Origin: a virus
IMG/VR virus record: IMGVR_UViG_3300025849_000002
Length of the DNA stretch: 36,623 bases
Strand: one strand, 5' to 3'
Positions 9,841-24,988 of the stretch are shown piece after piece. A program made the position numbers and the translations under genes. Numbering within the stretch: the stretch's first letter is position 1; each line of letters begins with the position of its first letter. Below the pieces are notes generated by a model. It searched no databases. It had not been told where the DNA came from and saw nothing but the letters and a program-made list of their open reading frames with translations.

Positions 9841-10131
9841 TCAAATTCTGCGCTGTGAGTTTGCCTTAATACCGTATTCACCAGGGGCCAAGGTGTAGGT
9901 GATTGTTCCGCCGTTAAGCATATCGAGATAGGTGAAATCAGTAGGCTCTGATACTGTCAGTGAAGTGTAGGTTGCCACGTAAGTGCCGTCATCGTTCTGA
10001 AAACACTCAGAAATTTCAACCTGGTCATACCTGAACCCAAAGTTTGGGCACCGCTCATCCTGCCAATTTTCATCTAATTCTTCTTGACCAGAGATTATAA
10101 TAGAGTAGCTATTCATATTAATATTTTGCAA
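9841..10131 (-). CDS. hypothetical tail-module protein (96 aa)
   Basis: ORF overlaps the end of the RCC1-like gene by 14 nt. No motif recognised. Confidence 0.5.
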   Translation of the reverse strand: MQNINMNSYSIIISGQEELDENWQDERCPNFGFRYDQVEISECFQNDDGTYVATYTSLTVSEPTDFTYLDMLNGGTITYTLAPGEYGIKANSQRRI

Positions 10132-11446
10132 TAAGGGTCATTTGAAGAGAAGAGACTTTGTTGCAGACATAGACCCATACGTTTCCTGCTGCCAAGTCTT
10201 GTGGCTTTATTTCTGTCCAGATTCTAGCCACAGTTCCTTGATTTAATACTCTACCATATTGAGCATAACCGGTTAGATAGAGGCGATTACCCTTTTGCGC
10301 TACCGCTGAGTATAGAGTTTGATTGAGCCCTCCATCTTCCATAGTGACCCGCACCCAGTCTGTGTCTGTGCCAATCTGCACATGACTTCCATTCTTCGCA
10401 TCGGTATTAGTGTTGTCGCCGCGCAAAAAATATTGCCCCTCGCCTGCGAAATACAGTTCGCCACTTGTGTTAATTAGGTAGCTATTAGTTCTACTTAAAG
10501 CAGCGCTCTGCCAATCAGTTTGTAATACACCCCCAACATATCCGATAGCCTGTGGCACTGTTTTGTCTGAAGAGTTGTTTAGACCAAACCTCTCATTACT
10601 ATCATCATCACCCCAACCAAACGCTTCGCCGTTACTGCGAATAGCAATGCATCCATCGTAATCAACATGCACAAAGCTAAAGTTAGAGTTCGTCATGTTG
10701 GTGCTAGGTAAAAGAGTCCAGGTTGTGGTGTTTCCGCTATTGGTTCCTTGACCAGTCTGATACAAGTAATTCCTGCCGCAACTAAAAATTTGATTACCGC
10801 TACCTTTAATCCCCACACTATAGAAGCGGGATTTATGTACCGCAACCCAATCCGAATCAGTTCCTACTTGAGTATAGCTACCGTAACTAGAGGTTTGATT
10901 GCCCGTGCCTGCCTGCCCGTAACTATTAGCACCTAGGTAATACAGCTTGCCGCTATTGATACCCATGGTTCCGTCATACCCCACTGATATGTCGGTCCAC
11001 CCGGTATCAGAATCCCCAACGCCAGTTACCTGCTGGAATGTGGTGGTAGCGTTTCCATCTAAAAAAGAACTGGAATACCCCAGCTCCCATAGCTGTCCGC
11101 TAGCTGTAATTCCGCAAGCGGAATACCTCCCGTAACTAATTTTAATGAAGTCAGACTTACTCTCAGCAGCTATCAGCTGTTCAGCATTAACGTCGCTAGA
11201 GAAGTTGACTACAGGTGTGCTACCATGCTCAAACCTAGGGAGGGTTTCATTACTAATAACGCTACTACTGAGGCTCATGCCACCCATTTTTAATAGCCCT
11301 GATGTGGGTATGGTTTCAGTGTATGTACCAGTACCTGCAACCGGGTCATAGGCCCCGCCGCCACCACCTCCGGACGGAACGTCCTGCCCGTTTATGCTAG
11401 CAATGTCTCCCATTTCAATTCCGTTATATTTAGTGGTGTCCGGCAT
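10118..11446 (-). CDS. RCC1-like beta-propeller repeat protein (putative receptor-binding/tail fibre component)
   Basis: About 7 repeats of roughly 50 aa, of the type G-x-L/I-Y/F-x-x-G-x-N-x-x-GQ-x-G-x-G (GKLYYLGANSYGQAGTGN, NYLYQTGQGTNSG, GEAFGWGDDDSNERFGLNN, GELYFAGEGQYFLRGDN, NRLYLTGYAQYGRVLNQG). TAATG coupling to the 1,444-aa tail protein. Confidence 0.6.
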   Translation of the reverse strand: MPDTTKYNGIEMGDIASINGQDVPSGGGGGGAYDPVAGTGTYTETIPTSGLLKMGGMSLSSSVISNETLPRFEHGSTPVVNFSSDVNAEQLIAAESKSDFIKISYGRYSACGITASGQLWELGYSSSFLDGNATTTFQQVTGVGDSDTGWTDISVGYDGTMGINSGKLYYLGANSYGQAGTGNQTSSYGSYTQVGTDSDWVAVHKSRFYSVGIKGSGNQIFSCGRNYLYQTGQGTNSGNTTTWTLLPSTNMTNSNFSFVHVDYDGCIAIRSNGEAFGWGDDDSNERFGLNNSSDKTVPQAIGYVGGVLQTDWQSAALSRTNSYLINTSGELYFAGEGQYFLRGDNTNTDAKNGSHVQIGTDTDWVRVTMEDGGLNQTLYSAVAQKGNRLYLTGYAQYGRVLNQGTVARIWTEIKPQDLAAGNVWVYVCNKVSSLQMTLIAKY

Positions 11447-14400
11447 TATCCAAGCTCAATAAAGTCGGGTGACGGATCGAGGTAAATAAGCTGTGTGCTA
11501 AGGGAGTATCCTACCGCCCTAACAAAGTCACCTGTCGTATGAGACGATAGGTCATCGGTAAGTTCACCCGCAGTTAGACTGATATAGAGCGGCGCACCTA
11601 CGGTAAAGCTGTTTGAGAACGACCTTATCCCCCGCACAAGCAATCCATCTGTTGTTGGGCTAGTCCCTAGAGCCATACCAAACAGCCCCTTGGTTTGTAT
11701 TTCAGCATCGGCATCGGCTTCCTCCCAAAGACCAGTACCGCTATTATCTCTTAATACATAGACCTTTCCTGCAGTGAGAGTTCCTGTACCAAACTTAACT
11801 ACCTGACCTTCATGCGCTCCAGAGACATACGCAGCCGTTCGAGTCTTTACCTCAAGATAAACGCCGTCTAGTTCATTAGCTGAAGTGATAAAGCCTAGGT
11901 CATTAGTCAAATCAGATGTGGCAGAAGGTATAGCGGTATTACCTTCTAGTGCAGTGCCTGATGTTGTGCCAAAACCAGGGAAGGAAACCTTAGCAGTGTT
12001 AGCCGATACGTCAGTGGCAATGTCTATGCCGTCTACTGTTCCGGTTAAAGTAATATTACCAGTTACACTGAAATTACCAAAGACTGCCGTGTTGCCCTGA
12101 AATAGAACAATTAGAGCTTGGAAAGTAGTGGCTGCTGAAGTGGTTAAGGAAAAAGAAGCTAATGAATCATTAAAGGCATCTGTTGCGCTAGACGCTGCTA
12201 AGTCAGCAAGACCGATATCTGCCGCGCTAGCGACAACTTGGAAGTTGTTGAACTCCGCATTAAACTCTAGCTGTCCATCGGTTTCGGTAGCACCCTGTGT
12301 CCAAGTAAATGCCGTCGTCACTTCGTAGAAACCATCGCTTGCAACAGTACCCTTACAGGCAAACCTATCGCCCACAGCCATTGAGATTGTGCCGCTACCA
12401 ATGCCTGTACCGCCACTAGCGCCATCCAACAATACGCCGTGATACTTAGTCAGCCCGCTAAGTTTAGCGCGTTCAGCGGCAGTAATAGTTGTTGGAGGGT
12501 TGTCTAAGTCGCCGTAATCAATGCCCGAGGTTCCGGCAGTAAATGTGACGGTGCTACTCGCGTTAGTAAAGTTCCAATCCCTCCCATGGTTGACAAGGCT
12601 GTTAATAGTCGTGGTAGGCAGGGGACTAGAGCTACTTCCTGCAACGCTAATTGCCGTGGTCTGCACCTCGCTACCAGCTGTTCCGCTTTGTACGTTAATG
12701 TCAACTTGACCAGGGCTTGTTTCGCTTAGGTCAATGTTGGTACGCGCACCCGCTTGCAGCTTGCCCGTTGTACCAGTTACAGAGACATGGCTTTCGTCAG
12801 TCGCGCTAGTATTTATGTAGACCCCTGCGCCATCGCTAGTGGTGCTATTCTTAAACACGGCTAGTATATCACTGACGCTTGCGCTCGTGCTAGCAATATC
12901 ATTGATTTGCCCCTGAGTTACAAACTTGTGGGCAGCGGTAGAATCGTCTACTTCATCGGAGCTTAGTGGTTCAGAACTAGCGTCAACATCAAAGTCTGCA
13001 ATCTGATCACCATTAGCGTTCATGGTAATCGCGTCAAGCTTTAGCTGATCACTAGCACTAACACTTCCACCGCCTCCGGTAAACCCCGTGATTGTGTCAA
13101 CGCCAGTTCCAGCAGCGTTGACGTTTATGAAATCTAGCTTTGTTACCTGCTCAGGCTTTAATGACCGGCCCAAGAACCTTTCTTCGCCAAATATCCTTTG
13201 GGACCGTACAACCCCACCAGGCACCGGGGGTATACCTCCTCCGTCAAGATTCAGGCCCTTGTTGCCAGTGGTGTTTAGCTCAGTGATTACCCTTGGGTCA
13301 TGCTCAAGCTCTACGCCTGTCATATTGATAATGCCTGACTCCAAATCAATGTCAACCCGCTGCACAATAAGGCGCATACTCTCACGAGTAAAGTCAAAGA
13401 TGTTACGAGGGCTAATGACTCGATTTCTAGAGCTTCCTGGCCTAGGCTTCAGGATTAAATCAAACTGACGCCTTGCTTCACCATAGTAGCTCATCCCTAC
13501 ATTGGCGGCTACCTGTAAAATACCCTTGTTTGCAGCTTGAGTTTCATGTAAAGAATCCCATTGACTAGAATAGCTGCCTGTAGGCCACTCATTGGTGTTG
13601 GGATCGTATACGCCCACATGAAGGTAGCCAAGCGCACCAAAGAGCTCATTGTACCTGCTGCCCAAAAGAGTTGTTCCAAGTAGCAGGGATTCAGAGCCAT
13701 TTGGGTCGTCATCCTGTGAGCTGAACATCGTGTCTTCAGAACGACTTGCATCACCAAGATAGAATTCAAAGTCAGTCCAAGTAGGTGGGTCAATAAGAAC
13801 ATTACCTAACCAACTATAGTTGCTAGATGGGTTAGGCCAGGCCGATACATCAGTATCGTACAGGATAAACCCTTCAGCAGTATACCCCTTTACGGAACAG
13901 TCGATAGTAATACCCACTTGATCTCCTGCGACATCAGGTAGCGCAGGGATTTGCAGGTCTATGTCTGTAGATATAACGGGGTTAGGGTAGTCGTTGCCAG
14001 CTAATCCAATTGGATTGCTTTCTAGCCAGTCAATCAAAATACCGTTTGAACTTTCTCCCATCCACTCTTGATGGGATTCGTTGTTGTAAATGGTTTTGTT
14101 TACGCTGTCAGGCTGTCTCTTTAGAAACAACCCTACAGGGTACGTAGTTACTTCTCCGTTCTCGTCATCATACTCAATAGTCTCTACGGCAGGTTGCGTA
14201 AATTCAGGGTGCAAGACCATGAATTCAAACCGGTCAGCGGAATTAGTGGTCCATTCGGCGTCACTGTGCTGTATGGGATAGTAAAACCTGTTTGTATAAC
14301 TATTAGCACCTACCGCCAAATAAGGGATTTGAATCTCACCCCAATCAGTCTCGTCAGTAAAATCACTAGCGCTCAGTTGAGTGGCGGTCTGTTTTAAATA

Positions 14401-15780
14401 GTAGGAGCCAACCTGAATCTGCATGCTGCAAATTATTTTGGCGCCAATCATTTCGTCAGCCCTACTCACCGGATCACCAATCACATTTAGGCTGTCGTTC
14501 TTTGGGCTCCTTACCCGCATACGGAAAATTCCACGTATACGGAAACCAGTGCCCTGTGGTATTTCTATCTCGGCGTTATTCTTTGGGAAGTCACCTAGCC
14601 GAGCGCCTTCTTGGTCTCCTTGAAAGTCACCAAGGTTTGGGCGCGGAATGCCTGTAATAACCGGGTCACGAAAGTTGGCGTCAATTACGTGGGTTTGTGC
14701 CCGAGGAAACACCCTTGTGCTACCGCCATTGCGATGCACATACGTCACCGTAGAAGCTGGCGGAAGAACAGACTCCTTGCTGCCGACTAATATGTCGTAG
14801 TTTGAGTCAGAGTCAATGTAACTGCCCTGATTAATTTCCGTAGGGCCGTAGTTGCTCGTGATACCCGGACTAGAAAGATTATTTTTACTAAGACCGTATT
14901 GATACTTCCCGTAGAACTCAGGGTCTGCTAAGTAGGGCAGTGCACTGACGCAGTAAAACCTACCTTCACTCATTGACATAGTCAATTGGAAAGCAATCAT
15001 AATATCCTTTAGGACATCTAGACAACTTAGGGTCTTTCTCTTTACTAGAAAGAGGTTCTCAAAAATGTTAGGTCTTTCGGCTTCAGTTAAAAACGTACCG
15101 CTATTGCATCCAGTTCTTGACAATGGTCCTACATCGTATCCAACTTGATTGGCATTGATGTCATGATTGTCATGATAGATATCGGTAATGTAAGAGAACA
15201 CCACATCAGGTGTACCAAACAACGGCAGTGTGGGCAGGTACTGAAAGCACCGAGCCATATGCGTTTGCAGCGTAGCATGGTCATCATATTGAGCTCCATT
15301 AGGAGCACGGTATGACTGTTCAGCGAGCAGACTTAAACCATCGACGGCTGTAAAAGAAACCGCATATGGGTCAATGCCGTAATCGACCTGAACAGACTGT
15401 GGCGCAACCACGCCTCTCCATTCAACTATCTCATTTAGATAGGTTACACCACCGAGCTCTACTTCATCAATAAAACCATACGTAACACCGATATTGAACT
15501 CGGTAGTTTCGCGTATAGCCTCTAGTATTTTGGCTTGATCATCGTTCTGAATAATCAGGTTTACCTTTAAGCTGCTAGACTTAATTGGGTCAAACACATT
15601 GTCAGTCCTGCCTTCGTACTGGAGGTTTAACCCACCACTAGCAATGGTTAACTGCTTCGGATCATTAGAAGAAAACCCCCATCCAAAAGCAGTGTTCTCT
15701 AGGTCATATACATAAAGGAACCTTTGGAACTCCCGATTAGGCTGCTTCCACTTTGCGTAATACCTTTTTGTTACTGCCAT
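11446..15780 (-). CDS. large multidomain distal-tail/baseplate/fibre protein (1,444 aa)
   Basis: Immediately downstream of the tape measure gene (TAATG). Its size and position are those of Dit/Tal fusions. Gly/Thr/Ser-rich fibre-like C-terminal third. Confidence 0.75.
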   Translation of the reverse strand: MAVTKRYYAKWKQPNREFQRFLYVYDLENTAFGWGFSSNDPKQLTIASGGLNLQYEGRTDNVFDPIKSSSLKVNLIIQNDDQAKILEAIRETTEFNIGVTYGFIDEVELGGVTYLNEIVEWRGVVAPQSVQVDYGIDPYAVSFTAVDGLSLLAEQSYRAPNGAQYDDHATLQTHMARCFQYLPTLPLFGTPDVVFSYITDIYHDNHDINANQVGYDVGPLSRTGCNSGTFLTEAERPNIFENLFLVKRKTLSCLDVLKDIMIAFQLTMSMSEGRFYCVSALPYLADPEFYGKYQYGLSKNNLSSPGITSNYGPTEINQGSYIDSDSNYDILVGSKESVLPPASTVTYVHRNGGSTRVFPRAQTHVIDANFRDPVITGIPRPNLGDFQGDQEGARLGDFPKNNAEIEIPQGTGFRIRGIFRMRVRSPKNDSLNVIGDPVSRADEMIGAKIICSMQIQVGSYYLKQTATQLSASDFTDETDWGEIQIPYLAVGANSYTNRFYYPIQHSDAEWTTNSADRFEFMVLHPEFTQPAVETIEYDDENGEVTTYPVGLFLKRQPDSVNKTIYNNESHQEWMGESSNGILIDWLESNPIGLAGNDYPNPVISTDIDLQIPALPDVAGDQVGITIDCSVKGYTAEGFILYDTDVSAWPNPSSNYSWLGNVLIDPPTWTDFEFYLGDASRSEDTMFSSQDDDPNGSESLLLGTTLLGSRYNELFGALGYLHVGVYDPNTNEWPTGSYSSQWDSLHETQAANKGILQVAANVGMSYYGEARRQFDLILKPRPGSSRNRVISPRNIFDFTRESMRLIVQRVDIDLESGIINMTGVELEHDPRVITELNTTGNKGLNLDGGGIPPVPGGVVRSQRIFGEERFLGRSLKPEQVTKLDFINVNAAGTGVDTITGFTGGGGSVSASDQLKLDAITMNANGDQIADFDVDASSEPLSSDEVDDSTAAHKFVTQGQINDIASTSASVSDILAVFKNSTTSDGAGVYINTSATDESHVSVTGTTGKLQAGARTNIDLSETSPGQVDINVQSGTAGSEVQTTAISVAGSSSSPLPTTTINSLVNHGRDWNFTNASSTVTFTAGTSGIDYGDLDNPPTTITAAERAKLSGLTKYHGVLLDGASGGTGIGSGTISMAVGDRFACKGTVASDGFYEVTTAFTWTQGATETDGQLEFNAEFNNFQVVASAADIGLADLAASSATDAFNDSLASFSLTTSAATTFQALIVLFQGNTAVFGNFSVTGNITLTGTVDGIDIATDVSANTAKVSFPGFGTTSGTALEGNTAIPSATSDLTNDLGFITSANELDGVYLEVKTRTAAYVSGAHEGQVVKFGTGTLTAGKVYVLRDNSGTGLWEEADADAEIQTKGLFGMALGTSPTTDGLLVRGIRSFSNSFTVGAPLYISLTAGELTDDLSSHTTGDFVRAVGYSLSTQLIYLDPSPDFIELG

Positions 15781-18482
15781 TATCCTCCAATTCGGGTCAT
15801 TTGACGACCGCTGTTTTGATTGCTTATGACAATATCATTGCCATCAATGCGGCTGCCAAAAGCCATGGGGTCACCGCCACCCTGAGCAGACCGGAAACCA
15901 AGGCCACCCGAAAGAAACCCGCTGAGGCCACCATCACCCATAAGCTGAGATGCCGTCGAAGCAAGTCCGGTGGGCGCACCTGCTGCTGTTGTTCCGCCTG
16001 ACAGGAGAGCTAGAATTGCATATAAGGCAATTAAAGAAACTAGCTTACCAATGATTCGAGTGAAGAAGCTTAAGAAAGCATTGCCTAGCTCCTTAAAGAA
16101 GTTAGTGCCTCCTTCAAGTGCAGTGCTAAATGCATTGCCTAGCGCGTTAGCAAAATCCCGGACTACCCGAAGCTGATTGACGGTTGTTTCAGCGGCCTCA
16201 TCAGCGCTTTCCTTGCGCAGCTTACGGATGTCCTCATCCAACTTGTAGTACAGCTCCCGCTGCTCCTGGACACTGAGTTCAGCGTCCTTCACAATATTGT
16301 CTACAGCCTGTCTATGGTCCGCAATTTGATTCTCCAAATCTGAGCGAAGGAACTTGGTATATTCTTCCCTAGCTTTCTTTCTTTTAGCGTTGGCCTGGTC
16401 CTCTTGATCCTCAAAAACCTCACCGGTCAACCTTGTCTCAAGAAGCTCTAGTAGCGGAGCAATCTGATCTGATGAGATACCTAGGTCTGCGGCCTCATCC
16501 GCTATTCCCGCTATTTGCTGTCGAACCCCAATCAGCTTTCTGCCAATGTCACCTGTAGTTAAGCGCTCGAGCTGTAAGTTTAAATCAGCTAAGAAAGAAG
16601 TACGGTCGGCAGCTATGTCAGCCGTTGCAATTGCCCTAAGCGATGCTGCAATACCATCAATCTCATCTCCAGTTCCACCAGCAGCCTTAAGCTGGTCAAC
16701 CAAGTTTTTAATTTTAATATTGACTTCAGCTAGCCTCCTTTGATAATCAGGCAATTGCTGCGCACGAGCTTTAGCAAGTTCATTTTCAGCCCTTAAGAGT
16801 AGTTTGGACCTCTTCTTCGAGTTTTCTACTCCTCGTTTTTCAGCGTCCTCAGCGTCAGCCTGAAGCTTGTTTCCGTCAGCGAAGATTTGGTTCAGCGCTT
16901 TCTGCGATTCAGCGCGTTCTCTGGCTGCTACTATCGCTTTGTCTACTTCAAACCTCTCAAGTCTTAATTGATCTATAGTTCTTGTGCGCTCCACATAAGC
17001 GTCCGCAAGCTCACTTCCAACCGCTGTAAGCGCTTGCGATTTGGTGGCGTTTTCGCCCTCCTCAGCAAGCTTCCGGCCTAACTTTATTGTACCCCGCTGT
17101 AAATCCGTAAGGTCACGAATCTCTTCTCCTAAGGCTGAATAAGTACCCCGTAACCTAGTGATGGCAGCTACTGTTCCATCTACGTCACTAATCTGACTTG
17201 ATGACCTTAAGTCTTGTGAATCTTCTAATAACTGTTTACTTTTTCTAGCTTCTTCTGCTGCAAAACCTACCTCCCCACCAAAATAAGCAGCGGCAGCGGC
17301 GGCAGCCAAAAGAGAAATTACAATTAACCCCGAAGCTGTAGACAAGGCAGCAACTGCAATCGTAAGCTGACCAACAACAAAGGTTAGGCCGGCAATGACA
17401 GGTGTAAGCGCAATGAAAGTACCTAAAAGAGACTTTGTACCAGGGCTAAGAGATGTAAATACCCTTGCAAGACCAACCATAATGTCTCGCAACACCTCTG
17501 TTGCCGGAACTAAAGTTCTACCTAGCTCAATACCTAAGTTTTGAAAGGCGTTCTTGAGCTGTTCAACAGTAAAGAAAAGCTCTCCTTCAAACTCTTCAGA
17601 AAGCCTATTGGCAGCACCACCAGCTAGGTCAAACAAGACTTGTAAGTCCTTTAAGTCACCACCCTGGTCCTGCAAAATAGAGCCGACAACTGCGGCACGG
17701 CTATTAAGAATACCGAGGATTTCTGAGTACTCTAAATTGCCTTCAGTAAATTTAGCAAGGGCAACATTACCGTCACTGTATGATTTAGCTAGCTTATTAA
17801 ACGTAGACCTCAGCTTAGTACCGGCAGTAGAGCCCTTAATAGCTGAATTGGCTAGCAAAGCAAGCAGTGCAACAGAGTCTTCTAAACTTACATTTTGTTG
17901 CTTTAGGATTGGACCAATATTTTTTAGTCCCTCTCGCAACTGAGGAATTGTAAGCGCACTGCTTTGCACAGCCTGAGCATACAAGTCAGTAACCCTTCCT
18001 GCCTGATCAGCCTCTAATCTGAAAATGTTCAGAGCCTCCTTTACCGCTGACGCTGAACCTGCTAAGTCCTCATCAAGAGCACCGGCTAGTGAAGATATAG
18101 CAGGAATAATGTTGCCGATGTCGCGGCCCGAAGTACCGAGCTTCGCAAGTTCTTTTTGCGCCTCAACAATTTGAATGCGCGTAAAGATTGTGCTTTCACC
18201 TAAGCCCCGCGCTTGTTCAGAGAGTTTACGAAAATCAGCCTTGCCTACAAGGGACCGCAACTGAACACTGACCTTGTTAAACTCCGATGCCGTGCTAACT
18301 GCAGCGCCCCCTACCAAAGCAAACGCAAGACCCAATCCCCGGCTGATACTAGAGCCTACTTTCGTGGCCTTTTGACCAAAAGTGACTAACTTACTTTGAG
18401 CAATCTCAGCGTTCTTCATGAACCCTGTGATATCCATCGTTAGGATGGCACTTAGCCGTGAAAACTCTGATATACTCGCCAT
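15780..18482 (-). CDS. tail tape measure protein (900 aa)
   Basis: Follows the G/GT chaperones. Long Ala/Leu/Glu/Lys-rich helical sequence with central hydrophobic segments (LTFVVGQLTIAVAALSTASGLIVISLLAAAAAAAYF). Confidence 0.85.
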   Translation of the reverse strand: MASISEFSRLSAILTMDITGFMKNAEIAQSKLVTFGQKATKVGSSISRGLGLAFALVGGAAVSTASEFNKVSVQLRSLVGKADFRKLSEQARGLGESTIFTRIQIVEAQKELAKLGTSGRDIGNIIPAISSLAGALDEDLAGSASAVKEALNIFRLEADQAGRVTDLYAQAVQSSALTIPQLREGLKNIGPILKQQNVSLEDSVALLALLANSAIKGSTAGTKLRSTFNKLAKSYSDGNVALAKFTEGNLEYSEILGILNSRAAVVGSILQDQGGDLKDLQVLFDLAGGAANRLSEEFEGELFFTVEQLKNAFQNLGIELGRTLVPATEVLRDIMVGLARVFTSLSPGTKSLLGTFIALTPVIAGLTFVVGQLTIAVAALSTASGLIVISLLAAAAAAAYFGGEVGFAAEEARKSKQLLEDSQDLRSSSQISDVDGTVAAITRLRGTYSALGEEIRDLTDLQRGTIKLGRKLAEEGENATKSQALTAVGSELADAYVERTRTIDQLRLERFEVDKAIVAARERAESQKALNQIFADGNKLQADAEDAEKRGVENSKKRSKLLLRAENELAKARAQQLPDYQRRLAEVNIKIKNLVDQLKAAGGTGDEIDGIAASLRAIATADIAADRTSFLADLNLQLERLTTGDIGRKLIGVRQQIAGIADEAADLGISSDQIAPLLELLETRLTGEVFEDQEDQANAKRKKAREEYTKFLRSDLENQIADHRQAVDNIVKDAELSVQEQRELYYKLDEDIRKLRKESADEAAETTVNQLRVVRDFANALGNAFSTALEGGTNFFKELGNAFLSFFTRIIGKLVSLIALYAILALLSGGTTAAGAPTGLASTASQLMGDGGLSGFLSGGLGFRSAQGGGDPMAFGSRIDGNDIVISNQNSGRQMTRIGG

Positions 18483-19140
18483 TAGAACTTCTTTAGTTTA
18501 GCAAACAAGGCTTCGCGTTCTTCTGCAGAACTAACCTTGGTTTCAGCCTCTGAAGTTACATCTAGTAGCGGGTGGAAATCAGCCGGTGAAAACCTCTTGC
18601 CTTTCCCGCTATTTACGTTCGCAAGTAACGCTAGGATAGTTGCTGCCATATCCCACTGACGTGCCAACCTAAAGTCATGTCCGCGAGAATACAGGGAAAA
18701 CTCTCGGAACGTCATGTCCCAAAACTGATCCGGCGTTAACCCTAAAGCCATGCCCCTTTCGTAAAGGGACCACAAGGTTAGCTCTTCAGCGACCTCTTCT
18801 GAGCCCTTGTTTTTTTTTGCTCCTCGTCGCCGCCAAGGGACTCCGTAACAAAGTCCGACATCTCCTCGAACAACCCAGGCTCATCTAAAGCTTGGGCACA
18901 GAAGGTTTCAAAATCAGGGACAGGCTGCTTCTTCCCATGCTTCAGACTGTAGTTCTGAATCCCGTAGTAAACCATACTTGGAACACTATCGAAAGGGTTC
19001 TCGGTAAGGAATGCATCCAACTCACTCAGCTTCAGCTTTTCCTTAGCGCACAGGATGCGAAGGGAATTCATATTAAGCAAAGTGTGGTATGTCTTTGTAC
19101 CTACCTTAAAGGAGTACTCTCCTCGAAATTTATTGTCCAT
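18482..19140 (-). CDS. tail assembly chaperone -1 frameshift product, gpGT-like
   Basis: Hand translation: the -1 frame entered at the A9 run (18818..18810) is open (..KKNKGSEEVAEELTLWSLYERG..) and continues into ORF 18482..18775, whose listed start is only a TTG. Confidence 0.6.
18778..19140 (-). CDS. tail assembly chaperone, gpG-like (120 aa)
   Basis: Lies between the tube protein region and the tape measure. Contains the slippery run 9 codons before its stop. Confidence 0.7.
   Translation of the reverse strand: MDNKFRGEYSFKVGTKTYHTLLNMNSLRILCAKEKLKLSELDAFLTENPFDSVPSMVYYGIQNYSLKHGKKQPVPDFETFCAQALDEPGLFEEMSDFVTESLGGDEEQKKTRAQKRSLKS
18810..18818 (-). promoter_or_regulatory. A9 slippery sequence for -1 programmed frameshift (G CAA AAA AAA ACA)
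   Basis: Nine consecutive T on the + strand (A on the coding strand), containing the A-AAA-AAA heptamer in the gpG frame. Confidence 0.6.
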
Positions 19141-19142
19141 TA

Positions 19143-20114
19143 TTAGGTAATGTCAAACTGAATGTTAAACAGCGTTGCTGCTTCTGCCGTTGAGTCAGCG
19201 TGTTTAATTCTATAACCAAAGTCATACGTTCCATTAGTGCCGCTTACGGGCAGCCTAAAGAAAAGTTGATGGTTCGCAGAAAAAGGAACTGTAGCCCCCC
19301 AAATAGGGGATGCCGAGAAAAAGGCCAGTTCTAGATATGTTCTAACACCACTAGACGACTCAATAAACATCTCTATCGTATTTTGCGTACTACCACTAGT
19401 GGCTTGCTGTCCAACAGTAATGTCAAACTCGTCACCCCAACTCGCCGAGTGATTGGTGGTTTGACCAACACTCAAACTGACCAATCCATCACTAGTCTCA
19501 AAAGCTGTCCAGGTTCTCGGCTTATGCAGGGCTAAACCATTAGTAGTAGCCGCGAAGAAATCAAGGTTGTTGGCTAACTCGCTTCCAGTAGGTTGGCCAA
19601 AATCACCGAACGAGTAGCCAATCATATAGCCTACACTAGTTTCACTAGAGCCATCTGTAACCACCGTCTCCAAGTAAGCGTGATTCGCACTATTATCGTC
19701 AACACTACTGCTATTAGCAAAAATCAAATGACGCTCGTCAGTACCTGGACTAAAACCAGACCAAGTATAATCAACGCTATTACCAACTGAGCCGCTAATT
19801 GTAAACGACTTAGTTTGTACTAATTGCATCGCTTGCCCCATTCCTGGCCACATGTACAACTTAGCTTCGACAGTGTTTCCGTCTACGATATGAGAACCAC
19901 TCAAAGTAAATTGAATGAATGCGTTAGAATCCTGTAAATCAGGCAGAGAATATACCAGTCCATTCGTGTCCTCTACAGATAACGAGCTTGCTGTCTGCAA
20001 ATCAGAAATGGCATGGGTGGAAGTACTAGTGGGTGTTGAGAACGGCAGTTCGTTCTCGACGAAACCGCCACCGCCACCGCCGCCACCACCGCTGCCGCCA
20101 CCGGCGCCTGCCAG
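19143..20114 (-). CDS. Gly-linker plus beta-rich domain, probably a C-terminal extension of tube paralog 20115..20687 (or a TTG-initiated 285-aa protein from 20000)
   Basis: Same frame as the upstream gene. 38 stop-free codons (LAGAGGGSGGGGGGGGGFVENELPFSTPTSTSTHAISD) bridge the TAG to the listed TTG. The first in-frame ATG is 49 codons further in. Confidence 0.55.
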   Translation of the reverse strand: MAGAGGGSGGGGGGGGGFVENELPFSTPTSTSTHAISDLQTASSLSVEDTNGLVYSLPDLQDSNAFIQFTLSGSHIVDGNTVEAKLYMWPGMGQAMQLVQTKSFTISGSVGNSVDYTWSGFSPGTDERHLIFANSSSVDDNSANHAYLETVVTDGSSETSVGYMIGYSFGDFGQPTGSELANNLDFFAATTNGLALHKPRTWTAFETSDGLVSLSVGQTTNHSASWGDEFDITVGQQATSGSTQNTIEMFIESSSGVRTYLELAFFSASPIWGATVPFSANHQLFFRLPVSGTNGTYDFGYRIKHADSTAEAATLFNIQFDIT

Positions 20115-20117
20115 CTA
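20115..20117 (-). promoter_or_regulatory. candidate leaky TAG stop (context GAT TAG CTG)
   Basis: In-frame stop directly followed by a Gly-rich linker-like coding sequence. The next base is C. Confidence 0.4.
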
Positions 20118-20687
20118 ATCTTTAATCAGGCTGTCAACGCCAGAGAAGGTTACCGAGTAAGTTGCAGTTTCATCGACAGCGCCCGTAAGGCTGATGCTGT
20201 CAATAAGGGCAATACCTACGTAAGCCGTTTGGTTGTCCAAGTAGAACCGAACAATAACATACTCACCGTCGTTTGCAATGTCAACGAGGGTACGACCGGT
20301 ATCAGCAAGAACTGACTCAATAAGTCCCTCGGCGGAAACAGTAAAGCTGTTGTCCTTTTCCTGAATCACACCACCCTGACCAGCATCGCGAGCGACGTCG
20401 TTAATCTCATTGGAGATATCCAAGGTGCTGTTCGTGGCTGCAGCTAGGATTGTAAAGGAACTACGTGCCCATGTTCCGCTACCACCTCCGGTATATGATC
20501 CGGCAGCAGTAAATTCACCTGCTGTTGTTTTTACAAGGTAAAAGCCCACCACTAAGGATGCAGTGTTCATTGCGGTCTCAATATCTGCGTCTATCGTGGC
20601 AGAATCGACAAAAATCAAGGGCTTGTCAGTGCTATCTGTGTCAATGTGATAGACCGCAAGGTTATTTGCGTTAAGAATACTAGCCAT
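20115..20687 (-). CDS. major tail (tube) protein, paralog 2 (190 aa)
   Basis: Position upstream of the G/GT chaperones. Clear similarity to 20690..21298 (ILAAATNSTLDISNEINDVARDAGQGG vs LALAATNTSMDVSNTVNEIVARDGAGG; YVIVRF..AYVG..ISLTG..TYSVTFSG vs YVVVKF..VYVG..FSLSG..TYSVTVNG). Confidence 0.65.
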   Translation of the reverse strand: MASILNANNLAVYHIDTDSTDKPLIFVDSATIDADIETAMNTASLVVGFYLVKTTAGEFTAAGSYTGGGSGTWARSSFTILAAATNSTLDISNEINDVARDAGQGGVIQEKDNSFTVSAEGLIESVLADTGRTLVDIANDGEYVIVRFYLDNQTAYVGIALIDSISLTGAVDETATYSVTFSGVDSLIKD

Positions 20688-22146: not shown

Positions 22147-23066
22147 CAGTATTGCCTTACACTAGATACCAAGCGCCGGACGCCCTCCTTTACCTCCGTG
22201 GTAATACCGCCTACTATTTCTGCCTCGCGCATGTTGTAGTAGTGACCAATCAACAATAAGGCCGCCTGGACATACTGCTTCGGTAGAGAACCTAAAGCGG
22301 TACCGCAGCTGACGCGCAACCTGAAACTCATTTTCTCCCCTCCCTCACTAAGCTGCTGGCATAGCTCACTGTAATCAAACTGACTTGGGTACTGGTCAGT
22401 CATGGCAGTATGCTTGAATAAAGTGCCGTTGTTTATCGCGAAGTAGGAGCTACTCGTATGCGTATGGTCACCAGTGACTGTCCCGTCAATACGGTATAGT
22501 CCCGCCTGAAGGTTTTGAAACGTATGGACTGTATAGCCGCCCGAGCCGCTAGCTGTATCTACCTGAACATACTGCTCAGTATGCCAATTATAGCGGCTTA
22601 AAGTATGTGTGATAGCCGAAGGTGTGTCGCTAGTGTCAGTGACTAATTGCTGCACATCAACGGAAGTATTAAAGACATCAACGTCAACAACCCTGTTTAC
22701 TGCGGTACCGCCTGTAAAAGAGAGTTGAACAAAGTGGTGACCGTGGACCTCATCGTCGGGCACTACCGGAATGTGCTTCGTAAATACACCATTTTCAAAA
22801 TACTCCAAAGACAATACAGAAGTAATGCCCTGAAGCTTTTGAATGCGAAAAGGTGCCCTGAACTCAGAGTAGTCCAGGAGCACCTTCGCAGTAGATAGAC
22901 CGAGAACTCGGTCGGAAAGATTTTGCAGATAGTCTACCGCAGCATCGCGATAGATATCTAGCAGGTCATCTTCAGATTCATCAATCGCACGAACGTGAGC
23001 CCGCATGGTAACGGAGCTCACGAACGTGTCGTCTATAGGCGATGTGCGATTGACTTCATAGAACAT
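22146..23066 (-). CDS. gp6-like head-tail connector (adaptor) with a large internal insertion
   Basis: The N-terminus (DDLLDIYRDAAVDYLQNLSDRVL) and C-terminus (AALLLIGHYYNMREA...VRRLVSSVRQY) look like a roughly 100-aa adaptor, split by about 170 extra residues. Confidence 0.5.
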   Translation of the reverse strand: MFYEVNRTSPIDDTFVSSVTMRAHVRAIDESEDDLLDIYRDAAVDYLQNLSDRVLGLSTAKVLLDYSEFRAPFRIQKLQGITSVLSLEYFENGVFTKHIPVVPDDEVHGHHFVQLSFTGGTAVNRVVDVDVFNTSVDVQQLVTDTSDTPSAITHTLSRYNWHTEQYVQVDTASGSGGYTVHTFQNLQAGLYRIDGTVTGDHTHTSSSYFAINNGTLFKHTAMTDQYPSQFDYSELCQQLSEGGEKMSFRLRVSCGTALGSLPKQYVQAALLLIGHYYNMREAEIVGGITTEVKEGVRRLVSSVRQY

Positions 23067-24988
23067 TAGTCGCGGTAACCGGTGAAACCGTAGCCACCGA
23101 AGTTAGTTCCGGTTCGGTTCGTCATGTCCGTCAGGGTCTTAAAGGACCGGTACACGTTGGCGATGATGCGAACGACCCCGCTATCGGCGTCAGTGTAAGG
23201 GTCAATAATCAAATTTAAACCACCCCACCTACATTGTACGGCGCGGGTAGCGTCCATCATGTACAGGTGACCGGCGTCAACAGAGCTATTGATGACCGTC
23301 GGGTACTCGAGGACGGATTGGCGGGTACTTGGGGAAGAGGCAAACAGCAGACCGGAACCGGCGTCGAGAGAGAGCTGACGATTAGTACGGTAAGCGGTAG
23401 GGCTAGTGAGAACGCGAATGTTCTGATTGTCTACGTTGTCAATCATCAAATCCTCCTCCATATGAAGGGCGTTCTGAGTTGCGGCGGCGAATTGGGCAAT
23501 CGTTCCACCAGCGCGGTGATCAGCAGCTGCGTCAATAGCAGAGACAACAGTGGTGTTGAACTTTGCGTCCACAGCCTTGCGAATCTCAGAAGCAACAAAA
23601 GCGCCGAGATCGTCAGAGGTCTGAGCCAAGAGCTGCTCGGTCACCTGAACGTGAGCGGAAACCCGGGTTGGGGTCAGCTCAATGGCGCTGAACGTCATGT
23701 TGCCCACTGCCTGGGGTACGCTCTCATTTGGGGTAGCCGTTCCGGGAGGCTTGTCCGCAACTTGGAAGACAACATTACCGCTGACGCCCGTGACCGTGCG
23801 CACACCCAGCTGCGTGGCGACGTCGTTCGGGTGCAAGAACTCGGTGAACCCCTGGTCGGCTACACCAATCTTACCACCAAACGCGTCAGCCGTGGAGCCT
23901 ACCGTCGCGGTTCCGAGGGCGTCAACACGCTTCTCCGTAAGAAAACTCGGGACGCTGATGCCACCGGCGATGTTCACCTTAGAGTCGGTAAACTCTGATC
24001 GAGCCTCTTGGTTCATCTCTGCTTCAAGGCCAGAGAGCTTACCTTGTGCGGCCTCACGAAGGGCCTTTCCAAAGCTGTAACGCTGTTGGACATTTGACTG
24101 TTGGTCGCCCCGGCTTTGTACGATAGCCGGAGCATTCTTTTCGTTCTCCATGGTATGGGAATTTGAATTATTAGAATTGCGAGCCTCCGGCTCAGGGATT
24201 ATTTCTTCTAGTGCGTAAGGATGTGGAAGGATGGCGGGGTCAATGAGCTGGTCAACGCGCTCTTCTTCCTCCTCCTCTTCTTCCTCGTCCTCCATCTTTT
24301 CCTCTTTCTCTTCCTCCTCGGCTTCGGATTTCTCCTCTTTCTCTTCCTCCTCGTCCTTGGCGCCATACGCCTTCTCTTCCTTCTCCTCCTCCTCTTCTTC
24401 GGCGCGAACCTCCTCTTCCTCAATCAGTGCCACATCCTCATTAGCGAGAGCAGTCTCCATGCTGCGAAGGCCGACATCAGTGGTTGGGTAGGCACCCTGG
24501 GTTGTGGGAGAAACGTCGAACAAAAGATCTACTTCTTTAATTGTACGCAAATTAACACCGTCATCCCTGCGTTCCCACTCATCATCACGGACAGTAAAAC
24601 CAAAGGAGCTAGTGCTTACGTTGCCCATGCGAATGTTCTCTACGAGATCTTTTGCATAGGATTGATTTCCAATCTCAAAACGGTACTTGAGCCCACGTTT
24701 ATCGACACTAAGCTCTAAGCCTCGCCCGACACGCGCCAAGGGTTGATTGATGTCGTGATTGAATAGCGCAACAGTGTTGTCCATCCGAGCACCTTTAAAT
24801 GCACCAGGGGCAACCCGTTCGGCGAACTGCCCACCGATGACCGTCTCATCGTTAAATACGGCAGCGTAGCCCTCAATGACAGGATTCTTGTCGGCAGCCT
24901 CACGGACTTCTACAGATCCTGTTAGAATTCGAATTTCTTTCTTGTCTGACATGACTTTACTTTTTTCCTTCGACTTTATTAATGACAC
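23066..24988 (-). CDS. prohead protease (HK97/S78-like) fused to HK97-fold major capsid protein through a poly-Glu/Lys linker
   Basis: N-terminal IEGYAAVFN...FNHD...STSSFGF is protease-like. An approximately 55-aa EEEEKEEK-type linker lies near 24230..24420. The C-terminal ~370 aa are capsid-like (..LNLIIDPYTDADSGVVRIIANVY..). One uninterrupted ORF. Confidence 0.8.
   Translation of the reverse strand: MSLIKSKEKSKVMSDKKEIRILTGSVEVREAADKNPVIEGYAAVFNDETVIGGQFAERVAPGAFKGARMDNTVALFNHDINQPLARVGRGLELSVDKRGLKYRFEIGNQSYAKDLVENIRMGNVSTSSFGFTVRDDEWERRDDGVNLRTIKEVDLLFDVSPTTQGAYPTTDVGLRSMETALANEDVALIEEEEVRAEEEEEEKEEKAYGAKDEEEEKEEKSEAEEEEKEEKMEDEEEEEEEEERVDQLIDPAILPHPYALEEIIPEPEARNSNNSNSHTMENEKNAPAIVQSRGDQQSNVQQRYSFGKALREAAQGKLSGLEAEMNQEARSEFTDSKVNIAGGISVPSFLTEKRVDALGTATVGSTADAFGGKIGVADQGFTEFLHPNDVATQLGVRTVTGVSGNVVFQVADKPPGTATPNESVPQAVGNMTFSAIELTPTRVSAHVQVTEQLLAQTSDDLGAFVASEIRKAVDAKFNTTVVSAIDAAADHRAGGTIAQFAAATQNALHMEEDLMIDNVDNQNIRVLTSPTAYRTNRQLSLDAGSGLLFASSPSTRQSVLEYPTVINSSVDAGHLYMMDATRAVQCRWGGLNLIIDPYTDADSGVVRIIANVYRSFKTLTDMTNRTGTNFGGYGFTGYRD

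Follow-up and report, generated by a model that had tools for sequence, protein, structure and literature searches.

Is an in-frame TAG between a tail tube gene and a long open frame behind it the plain boundary of two genes, or a stop codon that some ribosomes read through? This question is raised by a locus in a 36,623-nucleotide (nt) stretch of DNA from the IMG/VR virus record IMGVR_UViG_3300025849_000002, hereafter called the window. In this locus, a gene for a tube protein (tube paralog 2) is followed in the same frame by a Gly-rich spacer and a beta-rich module. A preliminary description, made from the letters of the window alone, had proposed programmed stop-codon readthrough. Comparison with related loci supported this proposal, as the TAG and the register of the extension are conserved in all 14 module-bearing lineages. 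Context-dependent UAG readthrough, which would yield a minority of extended tube subunits, is probably the best explanation of the arrangement.

The TAG junction and its conservation

The ATG at 20687 (- strand) starts a 190-codon open reading frame (ORF) whose last residues are ...GVDSLIKD and whose stop is the TAG at 20117..20115. Past this stop, 38 codons (20114..20001, -) read LAGAGGGSGGGGGGGGGFVENELPFSTPTSTSTHAISD, with neither a stop nor an ATG, GTG or TTG among them. They run directly into the TTG at 20000, which had been listed as the start of the module ORF and whose first in-frame ATG lies 49 codons further on. Altogether, the zero frame stays open for 323 sense codons past the TAG, up to the TAA at 19145..19143 (-); linker and module form a 323-residue extension, and the predicted readthrough product has 514 amino acids (aa). 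The sequence bore out the preliminary description of this junction. One detail had to be corrected, namely that the Gly/Ser/Ala run of 15 residues (20108..20064) begins two codons past the TAG and not one.

Tube paralog 2 scores 30.3 bits against PF06199 (curated cut-off 23.8). Its gene occupies the place expected for a siphophage major tail protein, with the gene for the tail-completion protein on one side and those for the G/GT chaperones on the other, and the synteny was confirmed. The earlier placement of the site between the tube protein and these chaperones was likewise upheld by the Pfam and PHROGs assignments of the flanking genes.

Taken on its own, the window offers an open spacer that is real yet not significant by itself, with a chance probability of ~0.16 for a stop-free stretch of 38 codons in this genome (all-frame stop frequency 0.048). 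From the 323 open codons it follows only that a genuine ORF lies downstream of the TAG. The observation exceeds chance because the same stop codon and the same register recur in 14/14 distinct module-bearing lineages.

To establish this, loci were gathered from ENA/TARA, JGI, Logan, IMG/VR and metagenome contigs, all from uncultured marine tailed phages. For each locus, the tube-2 ortholog was extended to its stop and the open frame past this stop was measured, for a tally of 68 distinct tube-2-type genes. Fourteen of the 68 end with TAG and are followed by an in-frame extension of 265-339 codons, and no gene has a TAG without an extension. The remaining 54 have no extension and end with TAA (53) or TGA (1); conversely, no extension was found behind TAA or TGA. 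The association between TAG and module is thus free of mixed cases (Fisher p = 8e-15 over the 68 distinct genes). In 19 of the 54 module-less tube-2 genes, e.g. those of L016, L018-L026, L028, L030 and L031, a second stop immediately follows the first (TAA-TAA), which is the opposite of a leaky-stop design. UAG is the least used stop codon in highly expressed bacterial genes, from which it is almost absent (PMC8954436). Given this rarity, its strict use on a tube gene, as opposed to TAA or TAA-TAA in the module-less relatives, looks selected.

The conservation extends to the codons that flank the stop. All 14 module-bearing lineages have GAT ahead of the stop, TAG as the stop and a Leu codon behind it, namely CTG in nine lineages, CTC in four and TTG in one. 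The GAT is invariant, whereas synonymous sites nearby vary; a second conserved Asp, five codons upstream, alternates between GAC and GAT. The invariant nucleotides at the junction are GAT-TAG-YT only. The preliminary description had drawn attention to the C directly 3' of the TAG. That base is present in the window, but it is not invariant, given the lineage with TTG, and what is conserved is GAT-TAG followed by a Leu codon. Miller and Albertini reportedly found in 1983 that CUN after UAG favours amber suppression in E. coli; this was not used as evidence here.

The TAG lineages span 52-100% tube-2 identity. Alignment of related phages, suggested earlier as a check, showed the TAG to be conserved: where the module is present, neither a sense codon nor TAA or TGA ever takes its place. 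In a neighbour-joining tree of tube 2, the module-less L066 and L113 (72-76% identity to the window), L067, L015 and L118 interleave with the TAG lineages. Stop identity has therefore switched several times as the module was gained or lost. Neither word-indexed searches nor an exhaustive HMMER search found a tube-module fusion in which a sense codon had replaced the TAG, and the homologues of tube paralog 2 formed 29 clusters of 130-235 aa, none of them fused into a longer protein. The stop-plus-module arrangement recurs in independent assemblies (TARA/ENA, JGI, Logan). In 14/14 lineages, gene callers annotate the locus as two genes, one for the tube protein and one for an orphan hypothetical protein whose TTG or GTG start is arbitrary.

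Tandem tube paralogs, as seen in the window and in L089, L094, L104 and L105, are found throughout this phage family. In related loci, the two are ~35-38% identical, and in some loci there are three. The TAG and the module are carried only by the last tube paralog ahead of the chaperones.

We then considered whether the spacer is coding sequence. The ratio of non-synonymous to synonymous substitution rates (dN/dS) was determined with six lineages that carry the window's type of extension, called type A (the window, L001, L005, L006, L013 and L114). Over the 41 aligned codons from the TAG to the window's TTG, dN/dS is 0.10-0.35, with a proportion of synonymous differences (pS) of 0.29-0.86. The values for the remainder of the module are 0.33-0.54, so the linker is at least equally constrained. 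The peptide ENxxPFxTxTSTxxHxIS is kept ahead of the first canonical start. Over the first 150 nt past the TAG, sense frame 0 alone is stop-free in the 12/12 lineages examined; all other frames, on both strands, hold stops in some of these 12. The first canonical in-frame start is found 0-58 codons past the TAG, at positions that are non-homologous between lineages. Starting at the window's first ATG would remove the sub-domain FxxxLSGxHxVxGN, which is conserved even across module types. No promoter- or terminator-like site was found in the spacer (20001..20114, -), and a Gly/Ser or Pro/Thr/Val linker directly adjoins the tube domain in all module-bearing lineages. The spacer codons upstream of independent starts are thus under purifying, coding-type selection. 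The view of the Gly-rich stretch as a translated interdomain linker rather than an intergenic spacer was supported by these dN/dS values, and by the fact that the frame is kept across linker indels.

Both types of linkers described below are G-rich and resemble Shine-Dalgarno (SD) sequences just 3' of the stop, although SD sites are missing from the phage's own genes. In the type-B linkers of L011, L112 and L116, the peptide PEVTP is encoded with GGAGGTGA, a perfect complement of the anti-SD sequence, ~24-31 nt past the TAG. Near-matches to this complement are found in L010, L115 and L117, and the type-A linkers consist of GGNGG repeats (20064..20108 in the window). An antisense ORF over the Gly-run spacer (19915..20118, +, 67 aa) was set aside as a by-product of the GGN repeats, with stops in related lineages.

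Explanations for the in-frame stop

According to the readthrough that we propose, most ribosomes that translate tube paralog 2 would terminate on the TAG (20115..20117), yielding the 190-aa tube subunit. The others, a minority, would decode UAG, presumably through a near-cognate tRNA, and stay in frame. In suppressor-free E. coli, the residue inserted at UAG is glutamine (PMC8954436). Past the UAG, these ribosomes would translate the flexible Gly/Ser linker and then the beta-rich module of ~285 aa to give the 514-aa subunit, which could co-assemble into the tail tube by means of its normal tube domain. By analogy with lambda gpV, T5 pb6, YSD1 and SPP1 gp17.1*, the module would be displayed on the exterior of the tail, where it would probably help the phage to adsorb to its host. 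The stop codon would serve as a ratio-setting device whose putative efficiency determines the share of extended subunits, and the linker as a socket behind which recombination has swapped different modules. In SPP1 and Listeria phages, recoding is an established means of giving a sub-stoichiometric share of the tube proteins a C-terminal extension (PMC8718954, PMC5009743).

Several points weigh against this proposal. The phages are uncultured, and the readthrough is a prediction from sequence comparison. The count of 14/14 overstates the number of independent events, as the lineages share ancestry. The Leu codon abuts the TAG, so that conservation of the frame alone fails to separate readthrough from reinitiation. 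No significant or conserved RNA structure was found 3' of the TAG (alifold consensus of -3.8 kcal/mol, no pairs on the 3' side). The fold z-score around the stop is -1.5, and a local hairpin that spans the stop in the window is not conserved in relatives. Efficient readthrough would have to rest on the short linear context alone, whose effect in the host is only putative. As regards fold and function, no module type matched Pfam at E<=0.01, and the module is without a sequence match in the PDB.

Frameshifting, ribosome hopping and transcriptional slippage at the junction were rejected, as there is neither a slippery run nor a matching landing codon. They are also unnecessary, since the conserved extension is in the zero frame. 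Conventional frameshifting probably occurs elsewhere in the same phage, as the G/T pair, 1.3 kb from the TAG, has a textbook A_AAA_AAA -1 site.

The strongest rival explanation is termination-reinitiation, or de novo non-AUG initiation, at the Leu codon beside the TAG, by which linker and module would be made as a separate protein. The adjacency of stop and restart would fix the frame just as readthrough does, the codon after the TAG is CTG or TTG in 10/14 lineages, and the phage has tightly coupled genes (TAA-n-ATG junctions) and starts without SD sites. Nevertheless, four lineages have CTC at this position, which is no known initiator, and 33/38 genes of the genome start with ATG. Furthermore, any stop would serve coupling, yet TAG, which accounts for 6/54 stops in the genome (11%), is found in 14/14 lineages, while the module-less relatives use TAA. 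Lastly, a 15-residue Gly/Ser tether would have no obvious role at the N-terminus of a free protein. We consider this explanation unlikely.

Alternatively, the TAG might be decoded efficiently as sense in the natural host, by a host or co-resident amber suppressor tRNA or because of a weak RF1, which would make the protein a constitutive fusion. A sense TAG should then have drifted to synonymous sense codons somewhere in the 14 lineages, and it never does. No tRNA was found in the near-complete 36.6-kb genome, and no other listed structural gene is interrupted by an in-frame TAG, the structural ORFs being contiguous in the standard code. We deem such decoding quite unlikely, even though amber-reassigned phages exist (Crassvirales) and the other genes that end with TAG would tolerate suppression, with the next stop only 4-27 codons on. 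Genome-wide reassignment of TAG was rejected too: there is one in-frame TAG only, the window encodes no tRNA, and TAG is a normal terminator. The 409-aa portal gene and other ORFs close with it, and three of the five other TAG-ended ORFs are confident genes.

In all databases, gene callers annotate two ordinary genes. The module would start independently at TTG 20000, or at a later GTG or ATG, the 114-nt spacer would be non-coding, and the shared frame would be coincidental. The chance figure given above for the open stretch leaves room for this, as does the absence of an SD sequence, which is normal for this phage. However, the selection data contradict the two-gene reading: the spacer has the low dN/dS and the conserved peptide upstream of the TTG, its frame is the only open one and is kept in 14/14 lineages in spite of the non-homologous first starts, and initiation at the ATG would sacrifice the sub-domain shared across module types. 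This reading is highly improbable. The lack of an SD sequence before TTG 20000 was not taken as evidence for either side and is uninformative, as the phage almost never uses SD sites; an SD-like motif precedes only ~4/38 genes, and the leaders are A-rich. These last two features, together with the ATG starts of 33/38 genes, suggest, speculatively, a host with SD-independent initiation, e.g. Bacteroidota-like.

Finally, a sequencing or assembly error, raised as an alternative in the preliminary description, or a fusion gene recently inactivated by a nonsense mutation has nothing in its favour beyond the single window and is refuted by the presence of the same TAG in the independent TARA/ENA, JGI and Logan assemblies at 52-100% tube-2 identity, which leaves it a negligible probability.

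Extension modules and genome context

Extensions of several kinds share a single ...KD-TAG-Leu junction. Type A has a Gly/Ser linker followed by an FP(F/I)A...THSIS motif, while the linker of type B is rich in Pro, Thr and Val (PEVTPVF). In addition, L115 has a hybrid extension of 339 codons, and a further type is found in L010 and L119. The TAG, the preceding GAT, the following Leu codon and the frame are retained through all module exchanges, and every related locus that reaches the end of its extension closes it with TAA. The preliminary description had held that ORFs in different frames, or stops in the spacer, would speak against readthrough; neither was found among the relatives. A comparison of L120 (1588-3144) with the window (19143..20687) showed modules that are 97% identical next to tube-2 genes that are only 70% identical. 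This indicates recent recombination, with a putative breakpoint in or near the linker just past the TAG.

A bolder proposal, which we put forward tentatively and regard as possible rather than likely, is that GAU-UAG-CUN and a flexible linker make up a portable, structure-free bacterial readthrough cassette, a universal socket that would automatically provide any surface-binding module recombined behind it at a low dose compatible with assembly. If true, the tube could still assemble normally while modules for host range or adsorption are exchanged. Taken furthest, the idea is that the dose may follow host physiology, through the levels of RF1 or Gln-tRNA, and thereby tune the decoration of the tail.

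Between L005 (1301-2275) and L006 (5839-6813), dN/dS of the module past the linker is ~1.47 (pS 0.07; proportion of non-synonymous differences, pN, 0.10), as compared with 0.10 for the linker. This ratio hints at diversifying selection on a possibly displayed domain.

The module is a near-orphan, with four clusters among 5.8 billion proteins; an exhaustive HMMER profile search of 1.84 billion representatives gave two matches. AlphaFold (AF2) models of it are all-beta, with a predicted local distance difference test (pLDDT) score of 43 from a 4-sequence alignment and of 40 from a 7-sequence alignment. One weak HMMER match, to an InlB-B-repeat protein, was taken as a compositional or repeat resemblance and did not lead to a fold assignment. 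With no match to the Big_1, Big_2 or FN3 profiles, no PDB match and all-beta models of low pLDDT, the module is not assigned to the Ig-like/FN3 class. Leaving class membership aside, the module may by analogy work like a tube decoration domain, and in all module-bearing lineages it is attached, as such domains are, by a linker to the C-terminus of the tube domain.

The features of the locus are listed in the table. The TAA of tube paralog 1 sits 2 nt from the ATG of tube paralog 2. The stop of G is at 18778..18780, and the T-like frame runs on in -1 to 18482. Downstream of the extension, Pfam and PHROGs assignments identified the G-like chaperone, the T-like ORF (PF06223), a tape measure protein of 900 aa and distal tail genes.

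Features of the tube locus, with positions on the window
Feature	Position	Strand	Basis or remark
Tail tube paralog 1, 202 aa, ends with TAA	20690..21298	-	PF06199 E=5e-11; phrog_1407 E=6e-16
Tube paralog 2, short 190-aa product ending at TAG	20118..20687	-	PF06199 E=4.9e-7; phrog_1407 'major tail protein'
Conserved context GAT-TAG-CTG (Asp, stop, Leu), TAG at 20115..20117	20112..20120	-	Kept in 14 module-bearing lineages
Linker, 38 codons without canonical start; Gly/Ser/Ala run at 20064..20108, then conserved ENELPFSTPTSTSTHAISD	20001..20114	-	dN/dS
Beta-rich C-terminal module, 285 codons from nominal TTG	19146..20000	-	Orphan family
TAA closing the extension, 2 nt ahead of the ATG of the G-like chaperone	19143..19145	-	Sequence
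G-like tail assembly chaperone with A_AAA_AAA -1 slippery site at 18811..18817	18778..19140	-	Sequence
T-like part of G-T frameshift product, PF06223 Phage_tail_T E=3e-6	18482..18775	-	-1 frame relative to G

Elsewhere in the window, the product of the capsid gene (23066..24988, -) combines a head maturation protease (Peptidase_S78) and the major capsid protein in one chain of 640 aa, a fusion that is conserved in related contigs. After the tape measure protein, a 1444-aa ORF (11446..15780, -) has no PHROG match, and a 442-aa ORF (10118..11446, -) matches the RCC1-like (regulator of chromosome condensation) family. These two are probably distal tail or host-recognition proteins.

No cultured relatives were found among 50,697 phage genomes by megablast of the locus or tblastn of tube 2, and the best terminase match is 34% identical. 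The sole match among 185,579 species genomes is a contig of a metagenome-assembled genome labelled Parvibaculum, which is 39% identical and has no module. It has the tube-gene end of the viral contig L032 and is probably the same contig; we consider it uninformative on the host.

Comparison with known systems

The closest parallels are SPP1, with gp17.1 and gp17.1*, and the Tsh proteins of the Listeria phages A118, A500 and PSA. There, as predicted here, a single start gives rise to two versions of the major tail protein of a siphophage. The less abundant version has a beta-rich domain at its C-terminus, displayed on the tube; in SPP1, this is an FN3 domain and the ratio is 3:1 (PMC8718954, PMC5009743). 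The position of the tube gene directly ahead of the G/GT chaperones is likewise shared with our phages. However, the SPP1 and Listeria proteins are extended by a +1 or +2 frameshift into another frame, whereas here a conserved TAG is followed by an extension in the zero frame, with a slippery site both absent and unneeded. The module is also much larger (~285 aa plus linker) and has no recognisable Ig or FN3 domain.

The order of the parts, a tube domain followed by an accessory domain, is shared with lambda gpV, T5 pb6 and YSD1, in which the accessory domain faces outward (PMC8718954). Those proteins are plain Ig-like (Big_1/Big_2) fusions, present on every subunit, in contrast with the stop that is maintained between the two parts here. 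Phages with TAG recoded in their late genes, including some Crassvirales, resemble ours in having an in-frame TAG within a structural coding region. They differ in having many such codons and usually a suppressor tRNA, whereas the window has one in-frame TAG, no tRNA, and TAG as the terminator of the portal gene and others.

Recoding is well documented as a way to extend capsid and tail proteins of phages by C-terminal domains, but in the form of frameshifting, and tube extensions in DNA phages are otherwise known only through frameshifting or direct fusion. In the full texts searched for this question, we found no report of readthrough that extends the tube protein of a tailed dsDNA phage, an absence that is no proof. 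If the proposed readthrough is true, it would join the recoding mechanisms known in tailed phages and provide a short, structure-free bacterial context for UAG readthrough. It would also be a natural example of tail decoration modules that work as plug-ins, and it would expose a systematic annotation error at these loci.

In terms of mechanism, the nearest relative would be protein A1 of Q-beta, which is made by UGA readthrough at ~5% and is the sole phage example of stop-codon readthrough in the table of a review on recoding (PMC7026636). In both cases, a leaky stop, here a predicted one, ends the gene of an abundant structural protein of the virion, and a few extended subunits co-assemble with the others (PMC7026636 Table 1). 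Q-beta is an ssRNA levivirus that uses UGA on its capsid protein, whereas the present phages are tailed, have dsDNA genomes and would use UAG on a tail tube subunit. Moreover, A1 is extended by one conserved domain, in contrast with the exchangeable module found behind the TAG of these tube genes.

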